DNA of 20,393 bases. It comes from a virus. Lineage: Duplodnaviria > Heunggongvirae > Uroviricota > Caudoviricetes. Below the pieces are notes generated by a model. The model was given only the letters and a program-made list of their open reading frames with translations. It had not been told where the DNA came from and ran no database searches. The stretch is from the IMG/VR virus record IMGVR_UViG_2609459790_000003; one strand, written 5' to 3'. The translations under genes and the position numbers were made by a program. The first letter of the stretch is position 1, and the number at the start of each line of letters is the position of its first letter. Below, piece by piece: positions 1,969 to 20,393 of the stretch.

Positions 1969-2090
1969 TGTTGGTTCAGTTGGTTCAGTTGGTTCAATTT
2001 GTAAAGAGTATTGTTTTTAAAAGGATTATTCGCAAAAAGTGAACCAACACACCCCATTTTTGAACCAACAAAAAGAGGCCGTGAACCAAC
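1969..2090. repeat. iteron array A: six copies of the 9-mer GTTGGTTCA / TGAACCAAC
   Basis: Three tandem GTTGGTTCA at 1970-1996, an AT-rich spacer, then three TGAACCAAC at 2040, 2061 and 2082 (21-bp phasing). Positions 1969-2017 are a perfect reverse complement of 10572-10620. Confidence 0.85.
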
Positions 2091-2164
2091 ACGCCGTTTA
2101 AAAACCGCTAATTATGAGGGACATCCACCAACACAGGGCTTGTCTAGTGCTAGTTAGGTGCTGC

Positions 2165-2383
2165 TCACCGCGCACGGAGCGGCGCTGGTTTGCTCCAGCG
2201 ATATGCGGGGCTGGTCATCATTTCGCGGTACCGCCTGGCTATTACAGGGCCCTCTGCCAGCTGGCGCCTTAATTCCCGCAGTTCTGCCGGGCTGAGCTGG
2301 TAGCCGTCATGCTCCAGCTTGGCAATGGTCAGCAGCTCGATTTCTCGTGGTGTCATGGATTCCCCTCTGATGGTGATCGGCAT
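2165..2383 (-). CDS. hypothetical small protein
   Basis: Track ORF of 72 aa; the internal ATG at 2354-2356 (MTPREIELL..., 63 aa) has a GAGGGG Shine-Dalgarno and is the more likely start. Divergent from the AlpA-like gene at 2609. Confidence 0.4.
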   Translation of the reverse strand: MPITIRGESMTPREIELLTIAKLEHDGYQLSPAELRELRRQLAEGPVIARRYREMMTSPAYRWSKPAPLRAR

Positions 2384-2524
2384 TATATTGCCAGCCAGGG
2401 TGATTCTTCACTGGCCGGAGCCGTTGTGCGTGAAGTCTATGCGTGAACTCCATATGCTATGTGTTAAGTTACAGCTCAAAATGTCCTGTTCCGGTGGTAA
2501 CTTTTTTGGTAAACAGCGTTTTGG

Positions 2525-2559
2525 TGGATACCAACATGGATACCTCGCTTTTGGATACC
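2525..2559 (+). promoter_or_regulatory. three direct repeats of TGGATACC upstream of the AlpA-like gene
   Basis: TGGATACC at 2525, 2537 and 2552, 50-85 bp upstream of the ATG at 2609; candidate regulator or recombinase binding sites in a divergent promoter region. Confidence 0.3.
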
Positions 2560-2608
2560 GCACAAAGCCAGATTGTCACTATGCTTAATCTAAAGCAGAG
2601 GAGCCTCT

Positions 2609-2794
2609 ATGCGCCTTATCAAATTAAGCGAAGTCATGCTCAGAACGGGCTTCAAGAAAACGGCAATCTACTCATGGGTTAAGACGGGCACGTTTCCACA
2701 GCCAGTTAAAATTGGTAGATCAGCTAGATGGTCGCTTGAGGAGGTTGAAGCTTGGATCCAGAACAAACTTGATTCGCGGGCTGGCAACCAATGA
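2609..2794 (+). CDS. AlpA-family (excisionase-like HTH) regulator
   Basis: MRLIKLSEVMLRTGFKKTAIYSWVKTGTFPQPVKIGRSARWSLEEVEAWIQ matches the AlpA/Vis HTH pattern; AGGAG Shine-Dalgarno 7 nt upstream. Confidence 0.8.
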   Translation: MRLIKLSEVMLRTGFKKTAIYSWVKTGTFPQPVKIGRSARWSLEEVEAWIQNKLDSRAGNQ

Positions 2795-3383
2795 TTAGCT
2801 TTAATATCGAGTGGTGGATAGTCCATGGACAAGCTGATGGGCGCACTCGACGAAAACGATGCGCCAGGCGGACTGTGTCGCTCATAAACCGGGAGTTGGC
2901 CAGAGGACTTAGTTGTCCTTTGCAATTCTGCAGGTTCGCACGTGAAAGTAGCCAAAACCCTGCGAACCTGAGTGCAAACCTGCAACTGCGAACCACTGAG
3001 GTGGCCTCTCATAGCTGGTGGTCATACTGGATATTAATCAGGCCTGCCACAGGCATAACAATCCATAACAGACGCATCGCACTAACAATTACTAATAGGT
3101 CCGCTCGCAACACTAATTTTGACTAAGCCTGAACGCAATGCTCAGAAAGAACGAAGAATGGAATGAATCGTACCAGCATGTTGCTCCATGATTTTTACGT
3201 TCAAGACAGTTGCTTAATCTCGCCTCGCAATTCAGCCCCCTTGCCGCGATCTTGCCGTTATCGAGAAGTCTTTCTCCTTTCGGTTAATGCTATCGGTCTT
3301 CATATTACCAGCAGCATACGCCATCCGATTATTTCGATGCTACGCGCGCGTACTTGTCGCAAAATACCAGGCAAAGGCCAGAT

Positions 3384-3698
3384 TCAGAACGTCGTGATAA
3401 CCACCAGCACAACATGAGAGGTCATGTAACGCGATTTATCACACCAGATACATGTATTGGTGTACCCGCATAAAACATCGTCATAGCGCGTCCTGTGCGC
3501 ATATACGCCGATAATCAACACATCACCACCACTCTGTCTCATGTAGAGAACAGTTTTATGGTATCCCCCCGCCATCGTGTGCATACTGGTCGGACGTAGT
3601 TGCAAAATTTTTTGCAACTGATACCCCTCGCGCGCGTACTGGTCACGAAATTGGTGTTTTGCTGTGGCAGTGATATCAGAAAAATCTTCCTGTTTCAC
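3384..3698 (-). CDS. possible RelE/ParE-fold toxin-like ORF, probably degenerate
   Basis: The core GYHKTVLYMRQSGGDVLIIGVYAHRTRY resembles the RelE/ParE C-terminal motif. The ORF starts with GTG, has no Shine-Dalgarno, has no partner antitoxin ORF, and carries a 27-aa C-terminal extension. Confidence 0.3.
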   Translation of the reverse strand: MKQEDFSDITATAKHQFRDQYAREGYQLQKILQLRPTSMHTMAGGYHKTVLYMRQSGGDVLIIGVYAHRTRYDDVLCGYTNTCIWCDKSRYMTSHVVLVVITTF

Positions 3699-3825
3699 AT
3701 AAAGCGGATATGCGCGTACTGTAACGGCCCCATCAACTGGGAGCGGATTTGAAATCCCGCCCCGAATGTGTAGGCAATGTCACTTAACGTTTGTCGCATA
3801 CCTTCCAGAAAAAGCGATTCATGAA

Positions 3826-3857
3826 TAATAGGGGCATGAATGCCCGGCGTACCGGGC
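3826..3857 (-). terminator. candidate terminator downstream of the lipoprotein gene
   Basis: Overlapping short GC hairpins GGGCA-TGAA-TGCCC and CCCGG-CGTA-CCGGG just 3' of the lipoprotein stop on the minus strand, followed by a U-rich tract. Confidence 0.3.
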
Positions 3858-3864
3858 TTATTAG

Positions 3865-4563
3865 TTAATTTGGTGCTTTAGGGTCAACATTAAAAGTTAT
3901 ATCACCTTCTGTATTTTTCCCGGCATAGCTAGCGGCTATTCTCGCCAACCCTTTGTAATCAGCAATTCCATCAGACTGTTGCGAGACGACTGAGCTACCA
4001 ACTTTCCATAACATATTAATCTGCCTATTATTGAGATAAGCCTTGGCATCAAACGACTGGAGTATCACCCCTGCGCCGTAGAACGTGTCCGTCACAGTTG
4101 TGTTATACGCGCCAGTAATTCCATAAGTAGGCGTATAAACTGTTGTTGCCGTTCCAGTGGTATTAGCTGTACCGTAGCCACCACCATAACTATTGAACGT
4201 GGTGTTCGAGTTTCCGTACGTTGTTGCTGAGCTCACACCAGTTTGCCCGTATATTGGGATGGTTACATTACGAGTATTTGAAATGGCCCCGCTTCTCAAA
4301 AAGTTCAAGAGAATTACCTGGTCAGCCAATTTTTCATCTTTAACTTGTATATATCCTTGGCTTGATAAACTGGCGGCTACTACCGTAGCTATTTGAGTGT
4401 ATTCAATCTGTTTGGTGTTCCAAAGTTCTTGGCTTGCGGGGATGATCAAGAACTTCTTACCGACAGATTGCCCGGAGGATAAAGCATTGACCGTTACTAA
4501 CGGTTTTTGTACGCATCCAGCCAATAATGACAGGGATAATATTAAAAGAAGATTTTTAATCAT
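3865..4563 (-). CDS. lipoprotein, Thr/Gly/Tyr-rich (232 aa)
   Basis: Signal peptide with lipobox LLAGC; AGGTGA Shine-Dalgarno 7 nt upstream of the ATG; low-complexity G/T/Y/N repeats; gene is about 42% GC, lower than its neighbours. Confidence 0.85.
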   Translation of the reverse strand: MIKNLLLILSLSLLAGCVQKPLVTVNALSSGQSVGKKFLIIPASQELWNTKQIEYTQIATVVAASLSSQGYIQVKDEKLADQVILLNFLRSGAISNTRNVTIPIYGQTGVSSATTYGNSNTTFNSYGGGYGTANTTGTATTVYTPTYGITGAYNTTVTDTFYGAGVILQSFDAKAYLNNRQINMLWKVGSSVVSQQSDGIADYKGLARIAASYAGKNTEGDITFNVDPKAPN

Positions 4564-4713
4564 GACAATCTCACCTAAGAATTGCGTGGTTATAAATTAT
4601 CATCACTGTAAGCGAATGTAAGCCACAGGCTCGTAATGTGATATGGAATTTTTATAGTTGGCTCAATATCAGTATGCCGTCCTTGGCTATTATGGTTTTG
4701 TTAGTTAGAGCGT

Positions 4714-7440
4714 CTATTCCCATTCGCTAACATCTTTCATGCCACTGAGGGTAGCTACAATCCCGGCCCTTGTCAGTTTCACGAATTCTTCAGCCCCAAC
4801 GGCATCACGAATTGCTTTCATGGCAATTTTATTGGCCGAAAATCGTTTCTCTGCTGCGGCGATCGCTGCTGGTGATGCCCCTGCGCGCACTGCTTTTGTA
4901 GCTTCCTGAACGGCTTTCTCTATCGCATATCGACCACTTCTTGTCGCCCCAATCTTAGCCACAGTATTTCTCAGTGCGCCACCAGCAACCAAACCACTAA
5001 TCGAACCAATTACACCACCGCCAAAGCCTCCAGCGATCGCACCTGACTGTTGAACTCCGTTCATAATCACACCGACGATCTTTGGAAGGCCTGAATCGAG
5101 CGTTTTGAGAGCCTCAGTTGTTCTTCCCGTGCGCTCTACGTATCGCTGCGGTCTGGTGCTGGCTTTAGCGAGTACACCGAACTCTTTCATCATTCTACCG
5201 AGATCTGGCGCATGACGACTGATGGCGTTTACATTCTGCTGGGTCATGAGCTTGGCAAAATACTGGATACCAGACTCTTCACCGATTCCTCCCTTCTCTC
5301 CCTGCGCCACAGCATGCTGAAGAATAGATGCTATTGCTGGTTGGCGTTCTGCTTCCGGCAGCGCGGAGATAAGGCGGTGAAAAGCTCCCGTTCCAGTATT
5401 TGCGGATGCCTTAAGCGTATCGGCACCTTTTCTTACCATAGCGTCTGATGCGAGATCTCGACCAAAAACAGATTCGGCATTTTGTTTGGCGATAATGTAA
5501 CTTTTAGAGAGATCGTTAGCTTTCTGCCATTCTGTGAGGAAGTTTCCTTTTTCAGCCATGATGCGCATGTCATCAGTGATAGCTCTGCGCATTTCTCCGG
5601 CAATCCGGGCGGCATTGGCCTTACCTGCCCGGGTGTTTGCTTGTTCAGCATCAGCAAACTTAGCACGCCATGCCTTCATCCCGTCGAAGGTTATGCCGCC
5701 ACCTTGGTTGTTGGCAGCCTGAAACTGTTTCATCTCCGGGCTGAGTGGAACATTGGCTGCTTTTTCTGCTTGGACGACAGCCATCCCATTACTCATTTTC
5801 ATCCTTTCGCGTGGCATCGTGCTTCGCAGTTCTGCCCATGCCATATTCTCTGCTGTTTTCATATCACTGAGGCTCGCGATGATGCGCTCTTTAATTGCTG
5901 CGCTTTTTTCTGATGCGCTTCCAGACTCAGCACCGAAATCAGACAACTGCTTATTCAACTTTGAGGATATTTCATTGAAGGCCGTAAGGTGAGCATCCTG
6001 AACATTCCCAGGAGTTGATGCCAGAACACCTTCTGCTTGGGCAATTCCACGACTACCTGAGCGCATTCCAGGCGTCAGGGTGTTGATATTAATACCAGTG
6101 ATTTTCGCCGCCTTAGCGACATCATCTCTGACGTTTGATGCCTGCGATGCGATATGCTCTCGGCCTACGGCAGAACGCGCTGCTTTCGATACATCATTGG
6201 CGGTTTCCAGAGTATTTGCTGCCCCTAACACATGGCCTGATTGATTTGTATTACTCCGCAATACATCTCGCATTACGTCACTGGCTGTCTGTCCGCTCTT
6301 TATTAAAGCGCGTGCTCCTAGCGATCCTGCTAGGCCAATACCTGTCTCTTTTGCTAGGTCTTCTGGGCTGATCTGCCCGTTCTTTTGGGCGTTCACCAAT
6401 GTACCTGGCAGGTTTTCTGCCAACATACTAGCCACCTTTGTGGCCGCACGTTCAGCACGTGGAGCGTTGGCAACTGAAGAAGCTGCGGTAGCTGCCTTTC
6501 CTGCACCTAATCCTGTAATAAGGTAAGGTGCTAGCTGCTCACCAGCCTGCGCGTATGGATCTGTAGGTTGGTCTACTGGGCGAAAGACAGGTGATATGGG
6601 CGTGTATGTGCCATCACCCACACCAAGCTTCTGAGCTGCCCATGCTCCGGCTGATTGCGCCGCATTGACTACCCCCACGCCTGCGTCCATTACATCAAAC
6701 GGTATATTAGCAATCCCTCTGGCCATCTGCTCTGGCGCAGCTTTCAGTCCTGGCGAAAGATATTCCATCTCAGGATTAAGGTTAGACTTGGCTACTTGCT
6801 GCTGCGGTTCCCCGGCATTTTCATCGGCGAGAAACTGAGCTCTTTTCTGCTCCCATGAACTGGCTGTTGGTAGTCCTGCTTCTATGTTCTTAAATTGCTG
6901 ACGTTTTGCTTCCCATGCAGAAATATCTCCCACCTGAGAGATTTCTTTATCAAGCTCTGAGTAGTCAGGCTGCTGAAGATTGCGATGTTGACTGGTTTGT
7001 GCAAACTGCAAGATTTCACTGTCATCAGGGATTATTCCGGCATCTGCAAATTTACTTACGTAATTAGCCGTTTCATCTGGCAGTGTAGATTTACCGTTTC
7101 TGACGGCATTAATACGAGCATAGCCAGAATTATACCCAGCCAATGCCATACCTATATCACCAAATCGCTTCATTCCTTTATTGAGATGGTTTGCTGCGAT
7201 ATCCATTTGCTTTTCAAATGGCAGTGAGCGCGGATCAGTTCCACGATAACCAGCATCACTCATTACTGAGGGCATCAGTTGAGCAAATCCTCTAGCTCCT
7301 TTCGGTGACTCGGCACTTCCGTTACCACTAGATTCATTGCCAACTAATGTTTCCATCGTCCCTGATGGGAAACCATATTTTTCATCGAGATGACGGGAAT
7401 AGGCTTTCTGTTTTTCTGTCAGTTGTGCCATCATTGCCAT
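4714..7440 (-). CDS. 908-aa protein with N-terminal lytic transglycosylase (SLT) domain and long Ala/Gly/Gln-rich body
   Basis: N-terminus carries SLT motifs (ESSGN catalytic Glu-Ser, GFAQLMP, AGYNSGYARI). The remainder is helical and low-complexity with a Gly/Ala-rich C-terminus. Its start is adjacent to the stop of the upstream gene. Confidence 0.9.
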   Translation of the reverse strand: MAMMAQLTEKQKAYSRHLDEKYGFPSGTMETLVGNESSGNGSAESPKGARGFAQLMPSVMSDAGYRGTDPRSLPFEKQMDIAANHLNKGMKRFGDIGMALAGYNSGYARINAVRNGKSTLPDETANYVSKFADAGIIPDDSEILQFAQTSQHRNLQQPDYSELDKEISQVGDISAWEAKRQQFKNIEAGLPTASSWEQKRAQFLADENAGEPQQQVAKSNLNPEMEYLSPGLKAAPEQMARGIANIPFDVMDAGVGVVNAAQSAGAWAAQKLGVGDGTYTPISPVFRPVDQPTDPYAQAGEQLAPYLITGLGAGKAATAASSVANAPRAERAATKVASMLAENLPGTLVNAQKNGQISPEDLAKETGIGLAGSLGARALIKSGQTASDVMRDVLRSNTNQSGHVLGAANTLETANDVSKAARSAVGREHIASQASNVRDDVAKAAKITGININTLTPGMRSGSRGIAQAEGVLASTPGNVQDAHLTAFNEISSKLNKQLSDFGAESGSASEKSAAIKERIIASLSDMKTAENMAWAELRSTMPRERMKMSNGMAVVQAEKAANVPLSPEMKQFQAANNQGGGITFDGMKAWRAKFADAEQANTRAGKANAARIAGEMRRAITDDMRIMAEKGNFLTEWQKANDLSKSYIIAKQNAESVFGRDLASDAMVRKGADTLKASANTGTGAFHRLISALPEAERQPAIASILQHAVAQGEKGGIGEESGIQYFAKLMTQQNVNAISRHAPDLGRMMKEFGVLAKASTRPQRYVERTGRTTEALKTLDSGLPKIVGVIMNGVQQSGAIAGGFGGGVIGSISGLVAGGALRNTVAKIGATRSGRYAIEKAVQEATKAVRAGASPAAIAAAEKRFSANKIAMKAIRDAVGAEEFVKLTRAGIVATLSGMKDVSEWE

Positions 7441-8750
7441 CCCTTAAGTTTTGCCTGATAGTAACTTTCCGGCAGATAGCCATGTGCGGTCACATAATCC
7501 TTAACCAGTGAAGGATCCTGCAACAGCATTTTGGTATCAGTTTCTTCGTCCTTTGATTTGGTTACAGGAATACCGAGCCCGGCAATCTGTCGTTTCTGCA
7601 TTCGAATAATTACGTCCTGCGCTTTATTCAACTCTCGCAAAAATGCCTCATTGCTGGTTGCTGACTTAATGCCATTTTGAGATTGCATAAGGGCAGCCCT
7701 TTCCCCTTCGGTTGGGTTAGAGCCAAAAGTCCCTTTGAGGCTAGGCAGAATAACCTTTAGGTTGTATTCATCAGCTTTGGCGCGTAGGCTTCGTGTGTCT
7801 TCTGCTACATCAGGAAGGAATCCAAACCCCAGCGTCAGGGGGTTATAGTTCTGCGAGCGGGTAACGGCCGAAGGATGTTTCCCTACAATTCCCGCCAGTT
7901 CATGACCCACTTCAAGCGCAGAGTTCAAGGAGTCGATGTTACCTGTAACAGTATTAATTTTATCGTTCATCTTCTCCACTTTCGCCTGCTGTACCTTGCT
8001 CAGTTCAGCATTGAGCTTGTCTCTCTCGATGTCATTTTGAGCACGTCCAAGTCGTGCTTTCAGAACCATTTCTCTCGTGCGTAGTTGGTTATCGGATAGG
8101 ACTTTGAACTGCTCCATATCGAGACGCCGATTACCCTGTTCCGCATTAACCTGAGCATTATATGCAGATGTATCTGCGTTCTGCTGTGCAATGCTCTGCC
8201 CTTGCTGCTTCTCTTGAACACTAAAGTAACTATTTGGATCAGCATGGAGGTGGATGAGGTCAGTGATTCTGTTGAATTCCTGTGGGTCATTCTGCCAAGA
8301 CTGATAAACCTCTTCAGCAGGAAGACCAAATCGCTGTAATACTGGATTTGCCTGCTGAATGGCCTTCTGCATGGTCAGTGGATCTCCAGTTTGTGACGCA
8401 AGACGCAGATTCATGGCAGCGTCAGCGGTCTGTCGATTTTGCTCAGCATCAATGAATCCCATCTGTTTTTGAGAATCAGCCATAAACTGGGGATACTGGG
8501 CCATTAACTTCTGCACGCCAACACGATCATTATTAGCTACCGCACTACCCAACCGTGCCTGATATTCTTTTAGCTGCTGGGAAATTTGCGCCTGCTGATT
8601 AATCTCAGCAACGCCTCTTAGCCCCTGTAGCGCCATTAAACCTACGTTTGGCTGCTGCTGATACTGCACAGGCTGAGGAACGGAAGAACGAGGAGCATTA
8701 TCATTTTGCGGTGCCATGCTAGGCAGCCCGCCAAGTTGCCATGTCGTCAT
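7431..8750 (-). CDS. 439-aa Gln-rich coiled-coil protein
   Basis: ATG at 8748-8750 overlaps the upstream stop (TAATG); Q-rich helical composition; no catalytic motif seen. Confidence 0.85.
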   Translation of the reverse strand: MTTWQLGGLPSMAPQNDNAPRSSVPQPVQYQQQPNVGLMALQGLRGVAEINQQAQISQQLKEYQARLGSAVANNDRVGVQKLMAQYPQFMADSQKQMGFIDAEQNRQTADAAMNLRLASQTGDPLTMQKAIQQANPVLQRFGLPAEEVYQSWQNDPQEFNRITDLIHLHADPNSYFSVQEKQQGQSIAQQNADTSAYNAQVNAEQGNRRLDMEQFKVLSDNQLRTREMVLKARLGRAQNDIERDKLNAELSKVQQAKVEKMNDKINTVTGNIDSLNSALEVGHELAGIVGKHPSAVTRSQNYNPLTLGFGFLPDVAEDTRSLRAKADEYNLKVILPSLKGTFGSNPTEGERAALMQSQNGIKSATSNEAFLRELNKAQDVIIRMQKRQIAGLGIPVTKSKDEETDTKMLLQDPSLVKDYVTAHGYLPESYYQAKLKGWQ

Positions 8751-9427
8751 TAGAATCCAAGCCCCCCAACAAGACCAATAAGCCCACCACCAATAGCCCC
8801 GGCGACATTACCTATACCCGGAACAACGGAACCAAGTTGCGCACCCGCTAAAGCGCCTGATGCCGCCCCACCAATACCACGCGCAAGACTGGATGGCTGC
8901 TGCGCCTGACCTGCACGAATAGCGCCAAGCCCCTGCAAGAGTTGTCCGGTATTATTGGCGTAGTTTTGCCCTGCTGTTGCCTGCCCTGATGCCGCATTCA
9001 TCCCGACATTTAGCAGGTTTCCATAATTTTGCATTTGCCCACTAAGCCAATTGTTATAAAGCATGGGCGCAATGGAAGATAACTGGTTACTGGTAGCTGT
9101 TGAGCCAAGCCCCCCGGTAGCTTCTGCTGAGACAAGGTTCTGATAACGGGCCTGATCTGCCTGTGTTTTATATAAACCAGAACCAAAGAAATCATTCGCG
9201 GCTTTATTCTGCCCTTCCAGAGTCATCAGTCCTTGCAGTTGTTGTAAAGCAGGCAATCCGACTTCTGCATACGGCTTGAGATTATTCATCACCGTATTCC
9301 ACTGCTCGCGCTGCAAATCAATTGCCTGCTGCTGGGCCTTCGCCTGGGCTTTAGAGGCACCACCATCACCGCCTTTTTCGTATACGGCACGATTGAGATG
9401 TTTATGAGCTATATGGGTAATTAACAT
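8750..9427 (-). CDS. 225-aa protein with C-terminal glycine-zipper hydrophobic segment
   Basis: C-terminus GIGGAASGALAGAQLGSVVPGIGNVAGAIGGGLIGLVGGLGF; ATG overlaps the stop of the 153-aa gene. Confidence 0.85.
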   Translation of the reverse strand: MLITHIAHKHLNRAVYEKGGDGGASKAQAKAQQQAIDLQREQWNTVMNNLKPYAEVGLPALQQLQGLMTLEGQNKAANDFFGSGLYKTQADQARYQNLVSAEATGGLGSTATSNQLSSIAPMLYNNWLSGQMQNYGNLLNVGMNAASGQATAGQNYANNTGQLLQGLGAIRAGQAQQPSSLARGIGGAASGALAGAQLGSVVPGIGNVAGAIGGGLIGLVGGLGF

Positions 9428-9882
9428 TCGCTGAGTTCCTTATATTGTTGCCGTGTTAACTGATAAAGCGTTACGCCGACGGGTTTACCACATCTGATAT
9501 ATGCATCGGCCAGGTGACCAACACGGGTAGCGCCAAGCAAACGGATAATTGCCCGTCCGTATTTCGTGGTGTCAGGAACCATGGTGATGCTGTTAAGGAA
9601 TGGTGAGTTTTCGAGAAGCCATTTGCAGAACAATCGATGCCCTTGCAGTGCATATTCACCACGGAATCCGGGGTCGTACACCGCATGGCATTCAACAATG
9701 CTATGCCAGAAGTTACGCACTTCATGAACGCCTGTCAGCACTAATCCTTCGTAGATGCCGAGATATACCGCATCAGGCTTGATGTAGTACGTGTGCCCCG
9801 GCTCAACAATATTTTCGGTATTGCCAGGCTCGTTAAGAAAGGCCTGTAATCGCACCGGGTTATCAATAAATTTTAGTTCCAT
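9421..9882 (-). CDS. 153-aa protein, first large gene of the module
   Basis: ATG at 9880-9882, 16 nt after the stop of the small upstream ORF; compact globular composition; no motif recognised. Confidence 0.8.
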   Translation of the reverse strand: MELKFIDNPVRLQAFLNEPGNTENIVEPGHTYYIKPDAVYLGIYEGLVLTGVHEVRNFWHSIVECHAVYDPGFRGEYALQGHRLFCKWLLENSPFLNSITMVPDTTKYGRAIIRLLGATRVGHLADAYIRCGKPVGVTLYQLTRQQYKELSEC

Positions 9883-9898
9883 GCGGTGCCATCCGTTT

Positions 9899-10060
9899 TC
9901 ACATACAGCCTGCCAGCGCCTTATCTATTAACCCTCGTGCAATTTCATGCAGAGTTGGCGCTACTCCAATTCCTGATTTTTTACGCTGCTCTTCCTGAAT
10001 TTTCTTTATCGCTTCCATTTGCTTCTCACTTATCAATACCGGCTTTACTGAAATAGCCAT
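9899..10060 (-). CDS. 53-aa putative ribbon-helix-helix DNA-binding protein
   Basis: Below the ORF-track length cutoff. ATG at 10058-10060 with AAGGGGG 5 nt upstream; MAISVKPVLISEKQMEAIKKIQEEQRKKSGIGVAPTLHEIARGLIDKALAGCM has a strand, helix, G-x-T, helix layout. Confidence 0.45.
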   Translation of the reverse strand: MAISVKPVLISEKQMEAIKKIQEEQRKKSGIGVAPTLHEIARGLIDKALAGCM

Positions 10061-10075
10061 AACGCCCCCTTAGAA

Positions 10076-10099
10076 CTGTATAAAACAACAGTTATTATA
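10076..10099 (-). promoter_or_regulatory. candidate promoter (-10 TATAAT) with overlapping LexA-like box
   Basis: Minus-strand TATAAT at 10094-10099; immediately downstream lies aaCTGTataaaacaACAGtt (10074-10093), CTGT-N8-ACAG, closely resembling the dinD box. No good -35 hexamer. Confidence 0.4.
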
Positions 10100-10154
10100 G
10101 TTTCGCAAATCGCAATATTCATCATCGTAATTGCAAAATATGAAACAAATAGCA

Positions 10155-10188
10155 CAAAAAAATGCCACCGCTCAGTAGCTGGTGGCAT
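10155..10188 (-). terminator. rho-independent terminator closing the primase operon
   Basis: On the minus strand AUGCCACC / GGUGGCAU form an 8-bp stem with an 11-nt loop, followed by UUUUUUU. Confidence 0.5.
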
Positions 10189-10381
10189 CGTTCTGTGTGT
10201 CAGGTTTTGACAGGTTTTTTATGGACTCTAAAAACTATATTTATGGTGTCGCATTACTCTTCACGGCAGGCGCTTTTCAGTTCTGCCCTTGCTTCTGGCT
10301 CCATTGGTAATTTGATTCGCGATCAGCTATGCGGATGGTTTGCTGAACAGGCATAACAACTTCTCAGGGGCTGTTTTCTGA

Positions 10382-10458
10382 ACTACGAAAATTTCGTAGT
10401 GCTCACTTTCAAAAACGTCACGCCCTTGTACACAGGATTTTACGAAAGTCTCGTAAAA
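10382..10458. promoter_or_regulatory. two palindromes sharing a TACGAAA half-site
   Basis: ACTACGAAAATTTCGTAGT (10382-10400) and TTTTACGAAAGTCTCGTAAAA (10438-10458), between the terminator and iteron array B. Confidence 0.3.
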
Positions 10459-10508
10459 CACTCTCTGATGCCAGCCAGGTGTTGTGCGCATCAATTCAGT
10501 CACATTGT

Positions 10509-10620
10509 GTTGGTTCAAAATACCGTGTTGTTGGTTCAGTGTTGGTTCAATAAAAAGAATAAAATCATTATAAAACAATACTCTTTACAAATTGAACCAA
10601 CTGAACCAACTGAACCAACA
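10509..10620. repeat. iteron array B: six copies of GTTGGTTCA / TGAACCAAC
   Basis: GTTGGTTCA at 10509, 10530 and 10541, then three tandem TGAACCAAC at 10593-10619. Inverted copy of array A; lies 25 bp beyond the primase stop codon. Confidence 0.85.
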
Positions 10621-10644
10621 CCTTTTCTACGCACATGAAGAAGC

Positions 10645-13404
10645 TCATTCTTCAGATGAGTTATAATCTCCTGGCTGGTAATTGAGTACATAAACGTTTA
10701 TTTGTCGTCCCTGAATACGTGGTGATTTTCTTTGGTATCCACGACCGCTGTTTGGTGGGGTTAGCATCCCGGCTTTTTTCAACACTTCAGCAAACTGTTT
10801 TGCGTTGAAACCACATGCGATCTCCTTTTCAAATGTGGCCGGGAATGTGTAGAAAATCATTGGGCTTTCGTCATGTTCTCCACGCTGACGGTATCCGGCT
10901 AAATCTTTGATGGGCAAATCTGCCGGGCTGTATGGAAATGGTGCAAAACGGCTAAGCCCATAGGCATTAAGAAATGCCTCCGTTTGTTCAATAATCTGCT
11001 GATGTTCTTTGTTACCTGTGCCGAACTCGCGCAACCATGCGTTATAGCTGTGCTGTATCGCATCACGGCATGTCTGAGCATCCCAGCCTGTTACAACCTC
11101 GCCTAACAGCAATGCGGCCTCCAGAATGGCAAATCGCGCGGCTACACGGTGAACCTGCTCACCATAATCGGATGGGATCAGACTTCTCCATCTGCTTTCG
11201 CAGTCACGAACAGTTTTAATTGCCTGTTGCTGGTGGTCTGCCAGCCATTTAATCCACTCACGCCCGGCTGCGCCGTGGTGATGCTGGTAAGCGTCTTTCA
11301 GTGCGTCTGCGTGCTGTTTTCCGTTCTGGTAATCGTGAAAGCGTACTGCTTTACTCAACGGAATATTCAGCAGTCGCACCAGTTGCCCGGCTTTGGTTTT
11401 TCGCCCGGAAGTAGCGATAAATGTTTCTAAATCCATTTCTCCGGTGCTGATTGCCACTGTACGCCAGCGTTTTAGATCCCGGTTTCCACCATCTTTAGCG
11501 CCTTGCAGTTTCCCTACACCGTTAAATAACGCATAGGCAGACTGTGAAACGCTGACAGGATCTGCGCCCTGACCAACTTCATCAAGCGGCATTAGTCCGT
11601 CATTGTGGGCGGCAGCTTCATTTGCCAGCCCCAGCGCGGTTCCGTACCACGTCAGCCGCAGTAAATCAGGGTTGCCGTATAAGCTGCTCGCCACGTTTGC
11701 CGTGGTGGTCTTACCTGCGCTCGACTGCTCATAGAAATGAATGCCGAACCCGTCAGCGCCCACCAGCCCAATCAATGGCGCTGCCAGTGCTGCGCCGATC
11801 CCGGTCATCATTGAATAGTTACCAAAGGCCAGACGCGCCACGCTATCACGCCAGCTTTTCGCGCTCCCTGAGATAGTATATCCGGCTGCGGCTGAGCTTC
11901 TCCCGCTGAACAGCACAGGATTTTCAGGTGTTCCGATGATTTCCCCATCAGGCATGATGTACGCTCCGCATTGCCAGCCAGTGGCATGAGCAACACGCCA
12001 CAATTCACGAGAGCCACTGCGTTGTAGCCAGTCTGCCAGTATTGCTCTGAGGCTGCTTTTGGTCGTGACATTTACCCCACCAGCTTTAAGTGTGCGCCAT
12101 CCTTCACGTTCACCAATATCAGCCAGTGGAATGGCAGCGGTTGTCGGCGTTTCAGAACCAAACGACAGCCAGCGAAGAATGAGATACTGGTCTTTATCGT
12201 CTCTGCCAGTACCGATAACGCTTAACGGAGAACATAACCAGCTTTCGTTATTGATGATTTCTCCACTCTGGCTGTCAGCTCTCGGAGATACCCAATAAAT
12301 ACCATCCTCGCGGCTTTCTATTCTTGGTTTCAGTGGGTCGGTATCCATAACCTTAAAATCGCTTCCTTCAATGGTCTGTGGCTCCTGTTTCACGCCATTA
12401 CCCTGTGGTTGGTACATTGATTTATTGAACGCTTCTGTAGCGCATTTAATGCCGTGTTTTTGGTGGTAATCATTCCAGTCGGCTTTGTGATCTGTCGGGG
12501 GTAATGCCACCCATCCAGAAACAGATAAAGCTGCTTTTTCTGCTGCTATTCTCCCCGTGTTTTGTCTTCCTTCGCTGTGGTCGTTATCCGCAGCAATGAT
12601 GATTTGTGCTGAAGGAAATTTATCCCGCAGTACCTGGGCGACATATAACAGGTTCCCGGCATCAATCGCCGCCACTGTCAGCGCCTCTGGACGAATTAAA
12701 TGGGCAGATAATGCCGTTGCCAGCCCTTCTGCGATTAAGATGCTCTGTGTTGTTTCTGGTGCGTTTATGGCGTGATATGCCCCTCGCTTTGCTGAACCTG
12801 TCAGGAGTCTTTTTTCACCATGTGAGGTAATAGTCTGTGCTGCTGTTACTGCGCCGGATTTATCCACCAGCGCCAGCAACAGAGATCCATCGGGCAACAC
12901 GGGGAATGTAAAATCACCTACCCCTTTCGCAACCAGATAATCAGATTTGCCGTTTACAGCCTTTCTGCGCATGTCATCAAACTGACGGGAAAACGTATCC
13001 CGTCTTTGTTGTTCGTCCTTCTCTGCCCTTTTCAGGCGCTCCTGTTCGCGTCGCTGGCGCTCGGTTTCCAGTTGTTCCCGTTTCTGGCTGGTGGCTTCTG
13101 GTGTTTCCGTTGTCCGGTAATCAATACCCAGAACATCAGCGGCAAGAAGCGCCGCCTCTGTTGTGTCGCAGTTATTTACGCGTTTAATTAAATCCAGCCC
13201 ATCACCAGCGCCGCACTGATTACAGATGAAGCTACCGCGCCCGTTGTCATCGAACCGGAATCGATCTTTACCCCCACATGCAGGGCAGGGAGCATGACGG
13301 CGTGGAGAGTCAGGGACATTTATGTTCAGGCAGCCCAGCACATGAGGCCAGTTGTTTTCAGACGCACTGATAACCTGACGGATAAGATCAATGTTTCGCA
13401 TCAC
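10645..13404 (-). CDS. bifunctional DNA primase / SF3-type helicase (P4 alpha-like)
   Basis: N-terminal zinc ribbon CPACGGKDRF...CNQCG, central primase region, C-terminal P-loop (SSAGKTT). The track start at 13404 is GTG; the ATG is the next codon (13399-13401). Confidence 0.9.
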   Translation of the reverse strand: MMRNIDLIRQVISASENNWPHVLGCLNINVPDSPRRHAPCPACGGKDRFRFDDNGRGSFICNQCGAGDGLDLIKRVNNCDTTEAALLAADVLGIDYRTTETPEATSQKREQLETERQRREQERLKRAEKDEQQRRDTFSRQFDDMRRKAVNGKSDYLVAKGVGDFTFPVLPDGSLLLALVDKSGAVTAAQTITSHGEKRLLTGSAKRGAYHAINAPETTQSILIAEGLATALSAHLIRPEALTVAAIDAGNLLYVAQVLRDKFPSAQIIIAADNDHSEGRQNTGRIAAEKAALSVSGWVALPPTDHKADWNDYHQKHGIKCATEAFNKSMYQPQGNGVKQEPQTIEGSDFKVMDTDPLKPRIESREDGIYWVSPRADSQSGEIINNESWLCSPLSVIGTGRDDKDQYLILRWLSFGSETPTTAAIPLADIGEREGWRTLKAGGVNVTTKSSLRAILADWLQRSGSRELWRVAHATGWQCGAYIMPDGEIIGTPENPVLFSGRSSAAAGYTISGSAKSWRDSVARLAFGNYSMMTGIGAALAAPLIGLVGADGFGIHFYEQSSAGKTTTANVASSLYGNPDLLRLTWYGTALGLANEAAAHNDGLMPLDEVGQGADPVSVSQSAYALFNGVGKLQGAKDGGNRDLKRWRTVAISTGEMDLETFIATSGRKTKAGQLVRLLNIPLSKAVRFHDYQNGKQHADALKDAYQHHHGAAGREWIKWLADHQQQAIKTVRDCESRWRSLIPSDYGEQVHRVAARFAILEAALLLGEVVTGWDAQTCRDAIQHSYNAWLREFGTGNKEHQQIIEQTEAFLNAYGLSRFAPFPYSPADLPIKDLAGYRQRGEHDESPMIFYTFPATFEKEIACGFNAKQFAEVLKKAGMLTPPNSGRGYQRKSPRIQGRQINVYVLNYQPGDYNSSEE

Positions 13405-15582: not shown

Positions 15583-16431
15583 GTGCCACCTCCATGCGGA
15601 TACGACCAGCAAAAAAGCAGACGTGATCGCGCACCAGAGAACGGCGAGCATCGCGTTCAGACTCGGCAGCAATATGATGAATTTTGGCGGTAATTGTCGG
15701 GCAATCGCGGCGAACTGCGGCGATAATCCAGATAAATTGCGGTTTTTGGGTAGGGGTAGTAGCCAGCATGTGGCAGCCTCCTTGTACTGGGAATTCTTCC
15801 CACCACCGGAGCTGCGAAACTCGCTGGTGGTGGACTGAACAGAGTTCGCAGTACCGGCGTACAAGGAAACCGGCCAGCCTTTCGGCTGCCCTGTCCAGCC
15901 CACCATAATTTTGCAAGCGACGCGGATTATAACCACATCACTGAAAAAAGTGTGAGTCTGGCTAACGGCACAAAAAAAGACGCTCGGCGCGTCATGTGTC
16001 GCCTCGTACATTTCCGGGCTGCGAAACCCGGCACCCGTTTTATGAGGTGCCTTATAACCATAAACCGTGTTGCCGCATAACGACAAGCTCTTTTTTATGG
16101 ACTCCGAAAACTCACTATTGGAAGCACCAGATGCACAATACATCGCGCTCATTTCGTTAACGTCGCGCGTGTGGACGAAGGTTTTTGTGGAGCCACTACG
16201 CGAGCAGAGAAAGCCATCTACGACCAGAAATTCTCTGGCGCAGCCGCTGACCCTCTCAACGCTAACACCATCGACCGTAATTTCTGACATAGTTAAGGCA
16301 TCCGCTCCTACCACCAGCAAATGATAAACTTTGCTTGCATCTGCTGTATTAATGCCTGATTTTGCTGTCATATTGCTGGATTTTGGCGACATACCAGTCA
16401 GTGAAAATATCTTCTTCTGGGCGGTTAGCAT
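15364..16431 (-). CDS. hypothetical protein; 355-codon open frame, true 3' end uncertain
   Basis: ATG at 16429-16431 with GGAGG 7 nt upstream. Both other minus-strand frames are closed by stops between 16431 and about 15940, so this frame is coding there. It stays open to 15364, but beyond about 15770 the composition suggests nested small genes or a frameshift. Confidence 0.35.
15575..15769 (-). CDS. hypothetical small protein (64 aa) in alternate frame
   Basis: ATG at 15767-15769 with AAGGAGG 7 nt upstream; protein-like composition ([22 protein letters not shown]...), whereas the long ORF's frame over the same bases is L/S/P/W-rich. Confidence 0.4.
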   Translation of the reverse strand: MLATTPTQKPQFIWIIAAVRRDCPTITAKIHHIAAESERDARRSLVRDHVCFFAGRIRMEVAHD

Positions 16432-18080: not shown

Positions 18081-18192
18081 GCTTCCCGTAACCTCTTAGC
18101 GATAGTTGTTGCTTCGTTACGGGTATTTAATGGTGTGCATGCTCAAAAGTGAATTACAGTAAATTTTATTGTCACGATACTAAATTTTATTA
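18081..18192 (-). promoter_or_regulatory. putative promoter/operator and 5' leader of the AlpA-led operon
   Basis: 8-bp inverted repeat CCCGTAAC / GTTACGGG (18085-18123) enclosing the AAGAGG ribosome-binding site, plus two direct TAAATTTTATT repeats (18159-18169 and 18181-18191). Promoter hexamers not resolved. Confidence 0.3.
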
Positions 18193-19038
18193 TCATGATT
18201 TCTTCTTTCCTGCCGTGGTACGTTTTTCCGGCAATCTGTCCATGTCAGATATGATCTTCTTTAAATAATCTGTAGATGGTTCATCATAATCGCCACCCAC
18301 ATGTGGCCAGTGGTCTATCGTAGCGTTTGCCCACGCTTCGTTGGTTTCTTTCCCGTTTTTCCCTTTGCACTCTTCAGGATAGTGCCGTTTCACATAAATC
18401 AACGCCATAATGCTATTCTCACGGTTCAGGCTATGTCGTGCTCTATTTCCATGCTCTATGTTTTTAAATTCCTTTTCATAAAGATCGTGTGAACCCAAAT
18501 GGAGTATGCTGGGTATTGGCTGATTTTTATCCATGCTTTCAGCTATATATTCAACCCACGGTCTTGATATATACAAATCTTCCACAGACGATACGGTGGT
18601 ATCATGTTCGCGATAATCGTAGAAAAAGTAACGTCCTGATGTGATATCTAGTTCTTTTTTTATATATGCTGGTGAGAATATGAGTGGAATGTCAGGGGCT
18701 CTCTTAACCCCTGCAAGGGAAGCAATGAAATCACTAGGAACGTGCCATAACCCACTTGCTAAGCACTTCATACCATCGAAAACACCTTCATTTAGATATC
18801 TTTCGGTATCTTCTCTAGTAGAAATAATAGAACCAAATAATAAGTTTTCTATGTCTTTGCTGCCGTGGTCTGGTGGCAAGTTTCTCGCTTGATAGAGTAC
18901 GCCTTCATACTGGTGAATTATTGTGCTCAAAAATATAGAGCCTGATACTCCCATAAGTAGAAGATCATCGACTTCTATTTCTAATAAATTTGCTGCTCTA
19001 TTAAGTCGGAAAAAGAGATTTGGTGGTAGTTTTTTCAT
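18193..19038 (-). CDS. AT-rich orphan cargo protein (281 aa), function unknown
   Basis: Long clean ORF, about 40% GC against GC-richer flanks, no recognisable domain; sits between the integrase and AlpA-like genes. Confidence 0.85.
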   Translation of the reverse strand: MKKLPPNLFFRLNRAANLLEIEVDDLLLMGVSGSIFLSTIIHQYEGVLYQARNLPPDHGSKDIENLLFGSIISTREDTERYLNEGVFDGMKCLASGLWHVPSDFIASLAGVKRAPDIPLIFSPAYIKKELDITSGRYFFYDYREHDTTVSSVEDLYISRPWVEYIAESMDKNQPIPSILHLGSHDLYEKEFKNIEHGNRARHSLNRENSIMALIYVKRHYPEECKGKNGKETNEAWANATIDHWPHVGGDYDEPSTDYLKKIISDMDRLPEKRTTAGKKKS

Positions 19039-19133
19039 TGCGTCACCTTTTACGCTGCGCCTTATTTTGTGATTGAGCCAGGCGGTAAGGCTTCCCGCTT
19101 TTCGCCCCGTCGAGCTAGGCTCAATCTATTCAG

Positions 19134-20393
19134 TTAGTTCGCCCTTCTGAGAGGCGTTACGTTGTAGTCTTTTCCGCTTTCCAGCGCCACCAGCAGATCA
19201 GCCCACTGTGCCAGTGCTGCTTTACGCTCATCAAAATACTGATGGCGGTTATAAATCCCCTCTACGCCCTTAATGCGATGATTGAGGCATCGTTCCGCCA
19301 CAACAGGATCAACACCCAACGCTGCTAAATGAGTCCGTGCGGTGCGTCGGAAATCGTGAATCGTGAAATTAGGCACATCCGGCATTTCGGCGCGAACCTT
19401 AGCCAGTGCTACGGGTAAAGTGCTTTCCTGAATATGTGGGATCATTCTGTTTTGCATCTTCCTGGCCGGAAGCACCCATGCGCTATTACATGAAAAGGTG
19501 TGTAGCTCTCTCAACCATTCAACGGCTGGGGAAGGTAGAGGTATATCAATAGGGTCTCCGTTTTTGCTGCGTTCTTCCGGCAAATGCCATACCGCACCAT
19601 CTAAATCAAACTCTTCCCATCGTGCGGCACATAACTCCATCTTACGAACGCATAGTGCCAGCAATAGCTTAAATGTCAGTTCGTTCTGGCGGCTGAATCC
19701 TTTTGCGGTGCGCATAGCCTCGAATAGCCTGATAAGCTCATCGCGAGTTAGCCAACGGTCGCGGGAAACCTCTTTACCACCAGCATCAGATATTTCAAAC
19801 GCTGAACAAGGGTTTATCTCCAGAGCGTGGCGTTTTATCCCATAGTCAAAGATACGGCGTGTCCAGCGTAATACATCTGTTGCTATCGTTGGTGCTCCTC
19901 GGTCAACGATACCTTTCAACATGTCGTCAATGTGGCGTGGCTTAACGTCCTCTACCTTCATATACCCAATGCAGGGGTTAATATCCTTATCAATTCTCCG
20001 GCGAAGGATATCGGGATGTTTCCATCTCGGAAGTATCTGGCGCTCGAAGTATTCGGCGGCCAGATCTGAAACGCGTATGGCGTTTTTCTCAGCCTCCATT
20101 TTTGCCAGTGCTTCTGCTTTTCGTTCCTGTTTCTCTGCTGCTACATCATAGCCAAGGGCAACTCTGGCTGACAGCTCTTTTGCTGTTTCTCTGGCTTTTG
20201 ATAGTGACAGTTCGGAGTAAGAGCCGATAACCATAGCCCGCTGTTTTCCTGCGAGCTTATATCGGAATCGCCAGAACGGGACTGTGTAGTTTTTGGGGTA
20301 GCAAATATAAAGGCCGTTGCCGTCTGCCTTGCCATCAAATCTGTCTCCCGCCTTTATCCATGCGCGGATCTGCATATCTGTGAGTTTTGGCAT
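19134..20393 (-). CDS. P4-type tyrosine integrase
   Basis: N-terminal arm-binding pattern (MPKLTDMQIRAW...GLYICYP...WRFRYKLAGKQR), C-terminal catalytic residues (HDFRRTARTHL, HxxR, GIYNRHQY). The ATG is the last three bases of the window, so the upstream att region is not visible. Confidence 0.93.
   Translation of the reverse strand: MPKLTDMQIRAWIKAGDRFDGKADGNGLYICYPKNYTVPFWRFRYKLAGKQRAMVIGSYSELSLSKARETAKELSARVALGYDVAAEKQERKAEALAKMEAEKNAIRVSDLAAEYFERQILPRWKHPDILRRRIDKDINPCIGYMKVEDVKPRHIDDMLKGIVDRGAPTIATDVLRWTRRIFDYGIKRHALEINPCSAFEISDAGGKEVSRDRWLTRDELIRLFEAMRTAKGFSRQNELTFKLLLALCVRKMELCAARWEEFDLDGAVWHLPEERSKNGDPIDIPLPSPAVEWLRELHTFSCNSAWVLPARKMQNRMIPHIQESTLPVALAKVRAEMPDVPNFTIHDFRRTARTHLAALGVDPVVAERCLNHRIKGVEGIYNRHQYFDERKAALAQWADLLVALESGKDYNVTPLRRAN

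Follow-up and report, generated by a model that had tools for sequence, protein, structure and literature searches.

The backbone of Gram-negative PICIs consists of int, alpA, pri, an origin after pri, variable captured late genes, and PerC (PMC6092414; PMC10111431). Their origins are made up of two iteron sets that flank an AT-rich region 3' of pri-rep, and autonomous replication from pri/rep together with ori has been shown for EcCICFT073 only (PMC6092414). In SaPIs, the C-terminal domain of Rep binds iterons located just 3' of rep, which are split by a central AT-rich region and run in opposite directions on its two sides (PMC9371898). PICI origins have so far been described as a single iteron/AT-rich unit by the initiator gene, and no report of a second, split or bipartite origin unit in PICIs was found in the searchable literature.

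Two further types of replicon are informative for the comparison. In the GenBank annotation of P4, crr (4291-4590) lies directly 3' of alpha, and ori (9086-9809), which has the same type-1 repeats, is 4.7 kb away. The alpha protein reportedly binds the type-1 repeats in both ori and crr, and crr is said to be required in cis. The iterons of plasmids are direct repeats of 17-22 bp, which are bound by winged-helix Rep monomers, and the host DnaA and DnaB are needed as well. These iterons serve initiation and handcuffing, and a second separate cluster can act as copy control or as an alternative origin. In R6K, the alpha, beta, and gamma origins share one iteron set.

Here, we analyzed a stretch of 20,393 nt (the window) in which two arrays, A and B, each carry six copies of the 9-mer GTTGGTTCA. 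Based on the comparison with related loci, we consider it about 72% probable that the window, a Gram-negative PICI-type satellite island, has an iteron origin of two units, with array A as the distal one. The new elements would be a conserved two-unit origin, with halves that are either adjacent or separated by captured phage genes, at distances of up to 9 kb, and a sharply localized candidate specificity determinant in the initiator (QRKSPRI versus QGRV-RE). A literature search for the 9-mer itself returned nothing relevant.

The window was 99.7% identical to the island between dinD and yicC of E. coli strain 214-4. All genes lie on the minus strand, in the order int, alpA, ash, primase-helicase, array B, P22-type ejection genes, array A, and perC. 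The integrase gene int is annotated at 19134-20393 (-), and Rfam placed an int-alpA RNA between int and the next ORF (19059-19125, -). Downstream of alpA follow antA, ash (with the C4 and isrK RNAs within its region), and several small ORFs, and then the primase-helicase. The segment between the arrays (2165-10060, -) contains, in order, a small ORF, DUF2824, homologues of P22 gp7, gp20, and the SLT-domain gp16, and hypothetical genes, with further small ORFs, and perC (1646-1933, -) directly follows the origin region. A 12-nt direct repeat, which was found at ~1116 and again just past int, represents a candidate att site, and its positions set the size of the element at ~19.3 kb. As in the published Gram-negative PICIs, int, alpA, and pri share one direction, the origin follows pri, the size is within 10-20 kb, and the virion/lysis gene set is incomplete. 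Judged by this gene order and content, the window is a Gram-negative PICI-type satellite island of ~19 kb from E. coli.

The match to the published PICI backbone also identified the cargo as a captured DNA-ejection module. A defence system was considered as the cargo and rejected, the content being a P22-type DNA-ejection module by domain annotation. The ejection set occupies 4714-9882 (-) and includes DUF2824, gp7, gp20, and a gp16-like SLT-domain protein of 908 aa, and three related E. coli islands (L003, L004, and L083) have another pair of genes, 'DNA transfer protein / injection protein', in this slot. The difference suggests that islands exchange their sets of ejection proteins in order to match, or to substitute for, those of a P22-like helper, and the P22-type genes themselves hint at a P22-like helper phage. 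In the region of the ash-family gene, the C4 antisense RNA and isrK were located by Rfam at 15823-15910 and 15973-16050 (-). Together with the int-alpA RNA, they point to an RNA immunity module of the P4/P1 type in the island. No Rfam family overlapped array A or B. In addition, two 19-nt direct repeats, TAAATTTTATTGTCACGAT and TAAATTTTATTATCATGAT, lie 21 nt apart at 18160-18199, ~80-120 nt upstream of alpA, and are a candidate operator for the AlpA promoter.

The presumed initiator is a primase-helicase of 919 aa (10645-13404, -), which is composed of a P4-alpha-type Zn-ribbon, a TOPRIM domain, a DUF927 helicase (Pfam E 5e-47), and a C-terminal domain. In BLASTP, P4 alpha aligned with residues 8-362 only (355 aa, 33% identity, E 2e-41), and no significant alignment of P4 alpha to the helicase or C-terminal parts was obtained. 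The helicase part instead matched the sequences of 8TCH (SaPI Rep, 'pathogenicity island protein', E 1e-11) and the SCCmec Cch 5DGK, which are its only solved relatives. By these matches the protein belongs with the Rep-type self-loading (MCM-like) helicases, with the activity as a prediction. For the last 140 residues, AlphaFold gave a model of modest quality (pLDDT 66, pTM 0.54), in which the elements follow the order beta-alpha-alpha-hairpin. A Foldseek search of the PDB with this model (pLDDT 66) gave no match at E <= 0.001; the best relevant weak matches were the TcpK wHTH 5VFX (prob 0.9, TM 0.49) and also 5DGK. With a model of this quality and no significant fold match, the winged-helix fold of the C-terminal domain is not established. 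A classification of the element as a P4 was rejected, in view of its PICI-type backbone and of an alpha homology that is limited to the N-terminal primase part. The P4 hallmark genes sid, psu, delta, and epsilon are absent from the annotation of the window.

Array A (1963-2096) begins with a tandem triplet of GTTGGTTCA at 1970, 1979, and 1988 (1970-1996, +), which is spaced at 9 nt and faces away from the cargo. It is followed by an AT-rich spacer of 43 nt (1997-2039, 77% AT), a candidate melting region in which the conserved block ATTTGTAAAGAG adjoins the tandem triplet, and by a spaced triplet at 2040, 2061, and 2082 (2040-2090, -), whose 21/21-nt spacing corresponds to two helical turns. 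The six exact copies within 1970-2090 agree in number and position with those listed in the first-pass annotation, which had described the array as helically phased replication iterons around an AT-rich spacer. The phasing applies to the spaced triplet (21 nt) but not to the tandem triplet (9 nt). The two triplets around the spacer were recognized correctly, but it was overlooked that one of them, with three of the six copies, is in the opposite orientation. The distance of 8.5 kb to the primase gene (2090 to 10645) was also correct.

Array B (10505-10626), the primase-proximal unit, starts 26 nt past the stop codon of the primase-helicase, directly 3' of the gene. Its six exact copies (10509-10619) are arranged as three copies at 10509, 10530, and 10541 (+, spaced at 21/11 nt), a spacer of 43 nt (10550-10592), and a tandem triplet at 10593, 10602, and 10611 (-). 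Both of the iteron loci named in the first-pass annotation were thus present, but their relation had been missed. Arrays A and B, ~8.4-8.5 kb apart, are inverted copies of each other. Self-comparison of the window revealed a perfect inverted repeat of 55 nt with its left arm at 1963-2017 in array A and its right arm at 10572-10626 in array B, which spans the tandem triplet, 7 outer bases, and 21 spacer bases; outside this repeat the arrays are ~74% alike.

The 9-mer was then counted in the whole window. All 12 exact copies fell into the two clusters of ~120 nt, and none was found in the remaining 20.1 kb. With up to one mismatch there were 17 matches against 4.6 expected, a number reached by 0 of 100 shuffles. 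In 147 kb of other E. coli DNA one exact copy was present compared with 1.1 expected, and this background rate indicates that GTTGGTTCA is not a common word. The enrichment at the two loci, which the first-pass annotation had anticipated, was confirmed by these counts.

Each unit has the sequence-level features of a SaPI/PICI origin, a type represented by SaPIbov1, SaPI1, SaPI5, and EcCICFT073. As in those elements, three plus three iterons on opposite strands surround an AT-rich spacer, in both arrays, and the origin is placed right at the 3' side of the initiator gene, which holds for array B, with array A 8.5 kb off. The iteron is likewise matched to the C-terminal part of the initiator, here by the covariation of residues 892-897 described below, and the helicase part is related by sequence to that of SaPI Rep (8TCH), the initiator being of the self-loading helicase type. 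The locus differs in having two units, the second up to kilobases away, instead of one, in iterons of 9 bp instead of the 5-6 bp of SaPIs, and in an initiator whose N-terminus is a P4-alpha-type Zn-ribbon/TOPRIM primase. EcCICFT073 shares the island backbone int-alpA-pri-ori-perC-late genes and has an origin of 230 nt with outer tandem copies in inverted orientation, but its primase is unrelated in sequence and its iteron is unrelated as well. Homology to the EcCICFT073 replicon was therefore rejected, with the design of the origin alone being shared, and the support that this element lends is by analogy of design.

To the comparison of relatives, 77 loci that encode primase-helicase relatives contributed, with one genome per species. 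In essentially all of 60 related loci, judged where the primase C-terminus was reached, the iteron cluster began 27-60 nt after the primase stop codon. The iteron motif varied by lineage, and at least seven classes were distinguished: GTTGGTTCA in most loci, GTTGTCTCA in five, GTCGGTTCA in five, ACGGGTTAY in three, and, in further relatives, GTGGGTTAT, AGGTCGGGT, and GGGATAAGT. When the proteins of loci with other motifs were compared with the window protein, the identity ratio was lowest in the last 40 residues (0.65, versus 0.85-1.0 elsewhere). The patch that covaries with the iteron comprises residues 892-897 (RKSPRI, codons at 10714-10731, -), which the modest-quality model (pLDDT 66) places in the beta-hairpin after two helices. 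The sequence GRGYQRKSPRI was present in 35 of 35 proteins of the GTTGGTTCA class, except for V at 897 in one of them (L022). The proteins of the GTTGTCTCA class are ~80% identical overall and carry GRGYQGRV-RE in 5 of 5; over the 919 columns, their fixed class-specific differences were confined to residue 840 and residues 892-897. In one further locus (L024), the iteron GTCGGTTCA is one base off GTTGGTTCA and the patch reads QRKTPRI, that is, S894T.

In the protein alignment, residues 892-897 thus predict the motif class of the iteron. The motif was independent of the alleles of integrase and AlpA: int was ~89% identical across loci of four motif classes, and only 28% identical among E. coli loci that share the motif. 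This covariation argues strongly, if indirectly, for a reading of the 9-mer by the C-terminal segment of the primase-helicase, and the six 9-mers of array A most likely serve as sites to which the primase-helicase of the island binds. The constant position of the cluster after the primase stop codon and the covariation of the motif with the C-terminal patch strongly support the first-pass annotation in its proposal that the 9-mers are replication iterons, arranged in two separated blocks and read by the primase-helicase. As far as sequence comparison can tell, that reading was essentially right, and the array is the initiator-binding iteron cluster of a satellite replicon.

The arrangement of the two units was surveyed in the 60 loci with a detector that allowed one mismatch; clustering of exact matches had undercounted the distal units, and that of L015 was missed. 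In 28 of the 60 loci, belonging to every motif class, the two units are adjacent within one origin of ~260-310 nt with the pattern +++-----+---. This composite origin lies between the primase gene and perC (for example in L006, L007, L010, and L026) and is composed of a tandem triplet, an AT-rich spacer, three inverted copies at 11/21 nt, ~40 nt with CCTGGCTGGCA, two or three more copies that are also spaced, another spacer, and finally a tandem triplet that is oppositely oriented. It corresponds to unit B of the window followed directly by unit A. In 15 loci, including the window, the units are 0.3-9 kb apart with unchanged polarity. One unit was in view in the other 17, five of which had short flanks and 12 had flanks of 10 kb; in at least one of these loci (L034), the partner probably lies just past the 10-kb flank. 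The 12 relatives with 10-kb flanks and a single unit indicate that the distal unit may be dispensable.

In all split loci, the proximal unit had the 11/21 spacing and the distal unit the 21/21 spacing, which was kept across genera, and the tandem triplets pointed outward. The exact inverted match between the units was 18-46 nt long in relatives, compared with 55 nt in the window. The tandem 9-mer was also present on more than 120 IMG/VR contigs, and on contigs with two tandem blocks the order was always + then -, at a distance of ~230-275 nt or several kb. The tandem triplets are accordingly the outer elements (>>> ... <<<) in composite loci, split loci, and IMG/VR contigs. The adjacent two-unit layout in every motif class indicates that both units switched specificity together, and this joint change argues that the distal unit is kept by selection and read by the same protein, and is not a decaying duplicate. 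With the same two units adjacent or split in relatives and their motifs switching jointly, array A would be the distal half of a bipartite origin. The adjacency in most relatives also implies that, on present comparisons, the separation of the units is a derived or variable state.

Several variations of the layout were noted. The element CCTGGCTGGCA occurs in the window as an exact direct repeat at 2389-2399 and 10469-10479 (both -), one copy on the cargo side of array B at a distance of ~30 nt and the other just upstream of orf72, ~300 nt from array A on its cargo side. Composite origins of other genera carry this element in the stretch that separates their two units. It may mark the cargo slot as a junction or a landmark for recombination. 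The number of tandem iterons is variable as well: array B of strain 214-4 (L001, 16583-16600) has two instead of three, and an Erwinia MAG (L064) has seven at 32-178 nt after the primase stop codon, which is consistent with slippage in the 9-nt tandem. A decayed island in E. coli O111:H- 11128 (L002, 16100-16240) retains only array A and perC, by IS elements and without the primase, so perC and the distal unit can persist as a remnant. In Yersinia pekkanenii (L036), three composite arrays are located at -4531, +51, and +1232 from the primase stop codon. The primase match of this locus is unusually long (3.9 kb), and the related protein P0068 of the contig is annotated as HNH endonuclease domain-containing; the layout may be due to an insertion into the primase gene or to islands that are arranged in tandem.

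The AT content of the spacers was 86% in array B and 77% in array A, against 52% for the window. In the nearest-neighbour calculation over stretches of 41 nt, the B spacer was the least stable of the window, and the A spacer ranked ninth (99.3rd percentile). This ranking fits array B as the main melting site, with array A serving either as an auxiliary site or as another origin. The second (distal) spacer of some composite origins is GC-rich, a composition that is easier to reconcile with an accessory binding cluster than with a further site of melting. A terminator scan around both arrays found two terminator-like sites only, both far from the arrays. As a single strand, array A folds into a long imperfect hairpin (z -4.1); this is a trivial consequence of the inverted iterons, and no evidential weight was given to it.

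From the observed anatomy, conservation, motif-protein covariation, and low duplex stability, we infer the binding, the melting, the looping, and any need for array A in replication. Upon induction of the island, the primase-helicase would be made, and a short C-terminal segment (around residues 887-900) would read the 9-bp iteron. Each unit would then present three abutting sites and three sites on the same helix face, in opposite orientation, on the two sides of a 43-bp meltable spacer. Initiator assemblies on both sides could open the spacer, after which the DUF927 helicase would load itself and the TOPRIM domain would prime synthesis. Unit B, with the weakest duplex of the window, is likely to be the main melting site. 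Unit A, which has the same tandem triplet and an identical 21-nt AT block, may provide another site for loading or serve as a partner in cis that is joined to B across a loop of 8.5 kb, and such looping could occur through initiator-initiator contacts, as for P4 crr with P4 ori. In the lineage of the window, the captured late-gene module would have come to be bracketed by the two units, which are adjacent in most relatives.

The parallel with P4 that was drawn in the first-pass annotation holds for the logic of crr and ori and fails for the element, which is of the PICI type and has homology to alpha in the N-terminal primase only. In both systems, two clusters of one short repeat, in both orientations, are separated by kilobases, the primase-helicase gene has one of the clusters directly at its 3' side, namely crr in P4 and array B here, and the N-terminal primase regions are homologous. 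The helicase and DNA-binding parts, in contrast, have no detectable relation to those of P4 alpha, the repeat is TGTTCACC in P4 and GTTGGTTCA here, crr consists of two 120-bp direct repeats whereas the two units here are inverted copies, and in most relatives of the window island the two units are adjacent. With iteron plasmids such as R6K, P1, pPS10, and RK2, the island shares clustered repeats that are read by the replicon's own initiator; it differs by 9-bp sites in inverted sets and by an initiator that is itself a helicase-primase. A more far-reaching reading, which we put forward tentatively and hold to be doubtful, is that the origin of this family is inherently bipartite, with halves that pair over long range through the initiator, a cargo slot between them, and the halves as anchors for cassette swapping. 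In that case, a mode like that of P4 ori/crr would have arisen in a SaPI-Rep-type replicon of Enterobacterales satellites with swapped late-gene cassettes.

As a different explanation, array A could be bound by the initiator and serve regulation or copy control, either as an operator of perC or as a handcuffing partner of B that limits initiation. The start codon of perC is only 37 nt from the tandem triplet of array A, a conserved block, TTTTTGCTTATaTATAg, is located between them in many genera, and perC always directly follows an origin unit. A regulatory role would also agree with the GC-rich distal spacer of several composite origins and with an A spacer that is less unstable than the B spacer. 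However, a simple scan for sigma-70-like promoters found none around array A or B, and in five relatives (L015, L023, L025, L028, and L030) perC follows the proximal unit, which indicates that perC is not tied to the distal unit. Moreover, array A has lost nothing of its origin-like anatomy and retains the identical 21-nt AT block by the triplet, which speaks against a role in regulation only. We consider this explanation unlikely; a perC operator as an added role of array A is possible.

It is far less probable that array A is a functionless relic, that is, a copy of the origin duplicated in the recombination that brought in the cargo. The two arrays are indeed inverted duplicates with a perfect match of 55 nt, but the likeness of only ~74% outside this match indicates that the duplication is not recent. 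The gene order around the distal unit varies in relatives, with array A, orf72, and perC permuted, which points to frequent rearrangement, and some relatives have one unit only. Against this, an alignment of 14 distal units from split loci of at least six genera revealed near-invariant iterons, inter-iteron spacers that are fixed at 12 nt but free in sequence, and conservation of the block by the triplet, so the units were kept while the intervening sequence drifted. The two-unit layout was moreover retained in every specificity class, the distal copies being re-matched to the new initiator each time.

We judged it highly improbable that the arrays delimit a mobile or invertible cassette as its inverted ends, in the form of transposon-like repeats or of a switch that flips the 8.5-kb segment, although a perfect 55-nt inverted repeat does bracket a discrete gene module whose content varies between islands. 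When 5,426 complete E. coli genomes were searched, the inversion junction was present in 0 of the 556 that carry the sequences, and the sole partial match, in strain SFE8, had the normal arrangement. The cargo genes are co-oriented with the primase in every locus, and neither a recombinase nor a transposase is encoded in or beside the segment. In addition, the units lie side by side without cargo between them in the 28 composite relatives, and the repeat motif follows the C-terminus of the primase-helicase. On the counts of 0/556 junctions and no recombinase, an inversion switch and a transposon with terminal inverted repeats were both rejected.

The least credible explanation, that the 9-mers are sites for integrase (as arm sites), AlpA, Ash, PerC, or packaging, can draw on the position of array A ~0.85 kb from the candidate attR core and next to perC, but the motif class varies independently of the alleles of integrase and AlpA, the candidate att region has a distinct repeat of its own (ATGTACA), and the cluster keeps its position relative to the primase stop codon and not to att; integrase and AlpA sites were excluded for lack of covariation with the motif.

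If array A is the distal unit of a two-unit origin, a simple rule would allow annotators to locate the origins in hundreds of islands of E. coli and other Enterobacterales, and the same rule would predict their replicon compatibility groups. If the distal unit is only a redundant copy of the origin, the finding reduces to an ordinary PICI origin.

Two minor features of the window were also recorded. Positions 1-1065, in the dinD region, are 98.9% identical to the GenBank records MG065686 and MG065691, which are labelled 'Campylobacter phage'; E. coli DNA in these assemblies most likely explains the match. The Chi sequence GCTGGTGG occurs at 15 sites in the 20.4 kb (8 on + and 7 on -, for example at 1770, 3014, 10178, 11229, and 13087), compared with 0.64 in shuffles, and at the average frequency of E. 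coli about 4-5 would be expected in this length. The excess of Chi may protect linear intermediates of replication or packaging from RecBCD.
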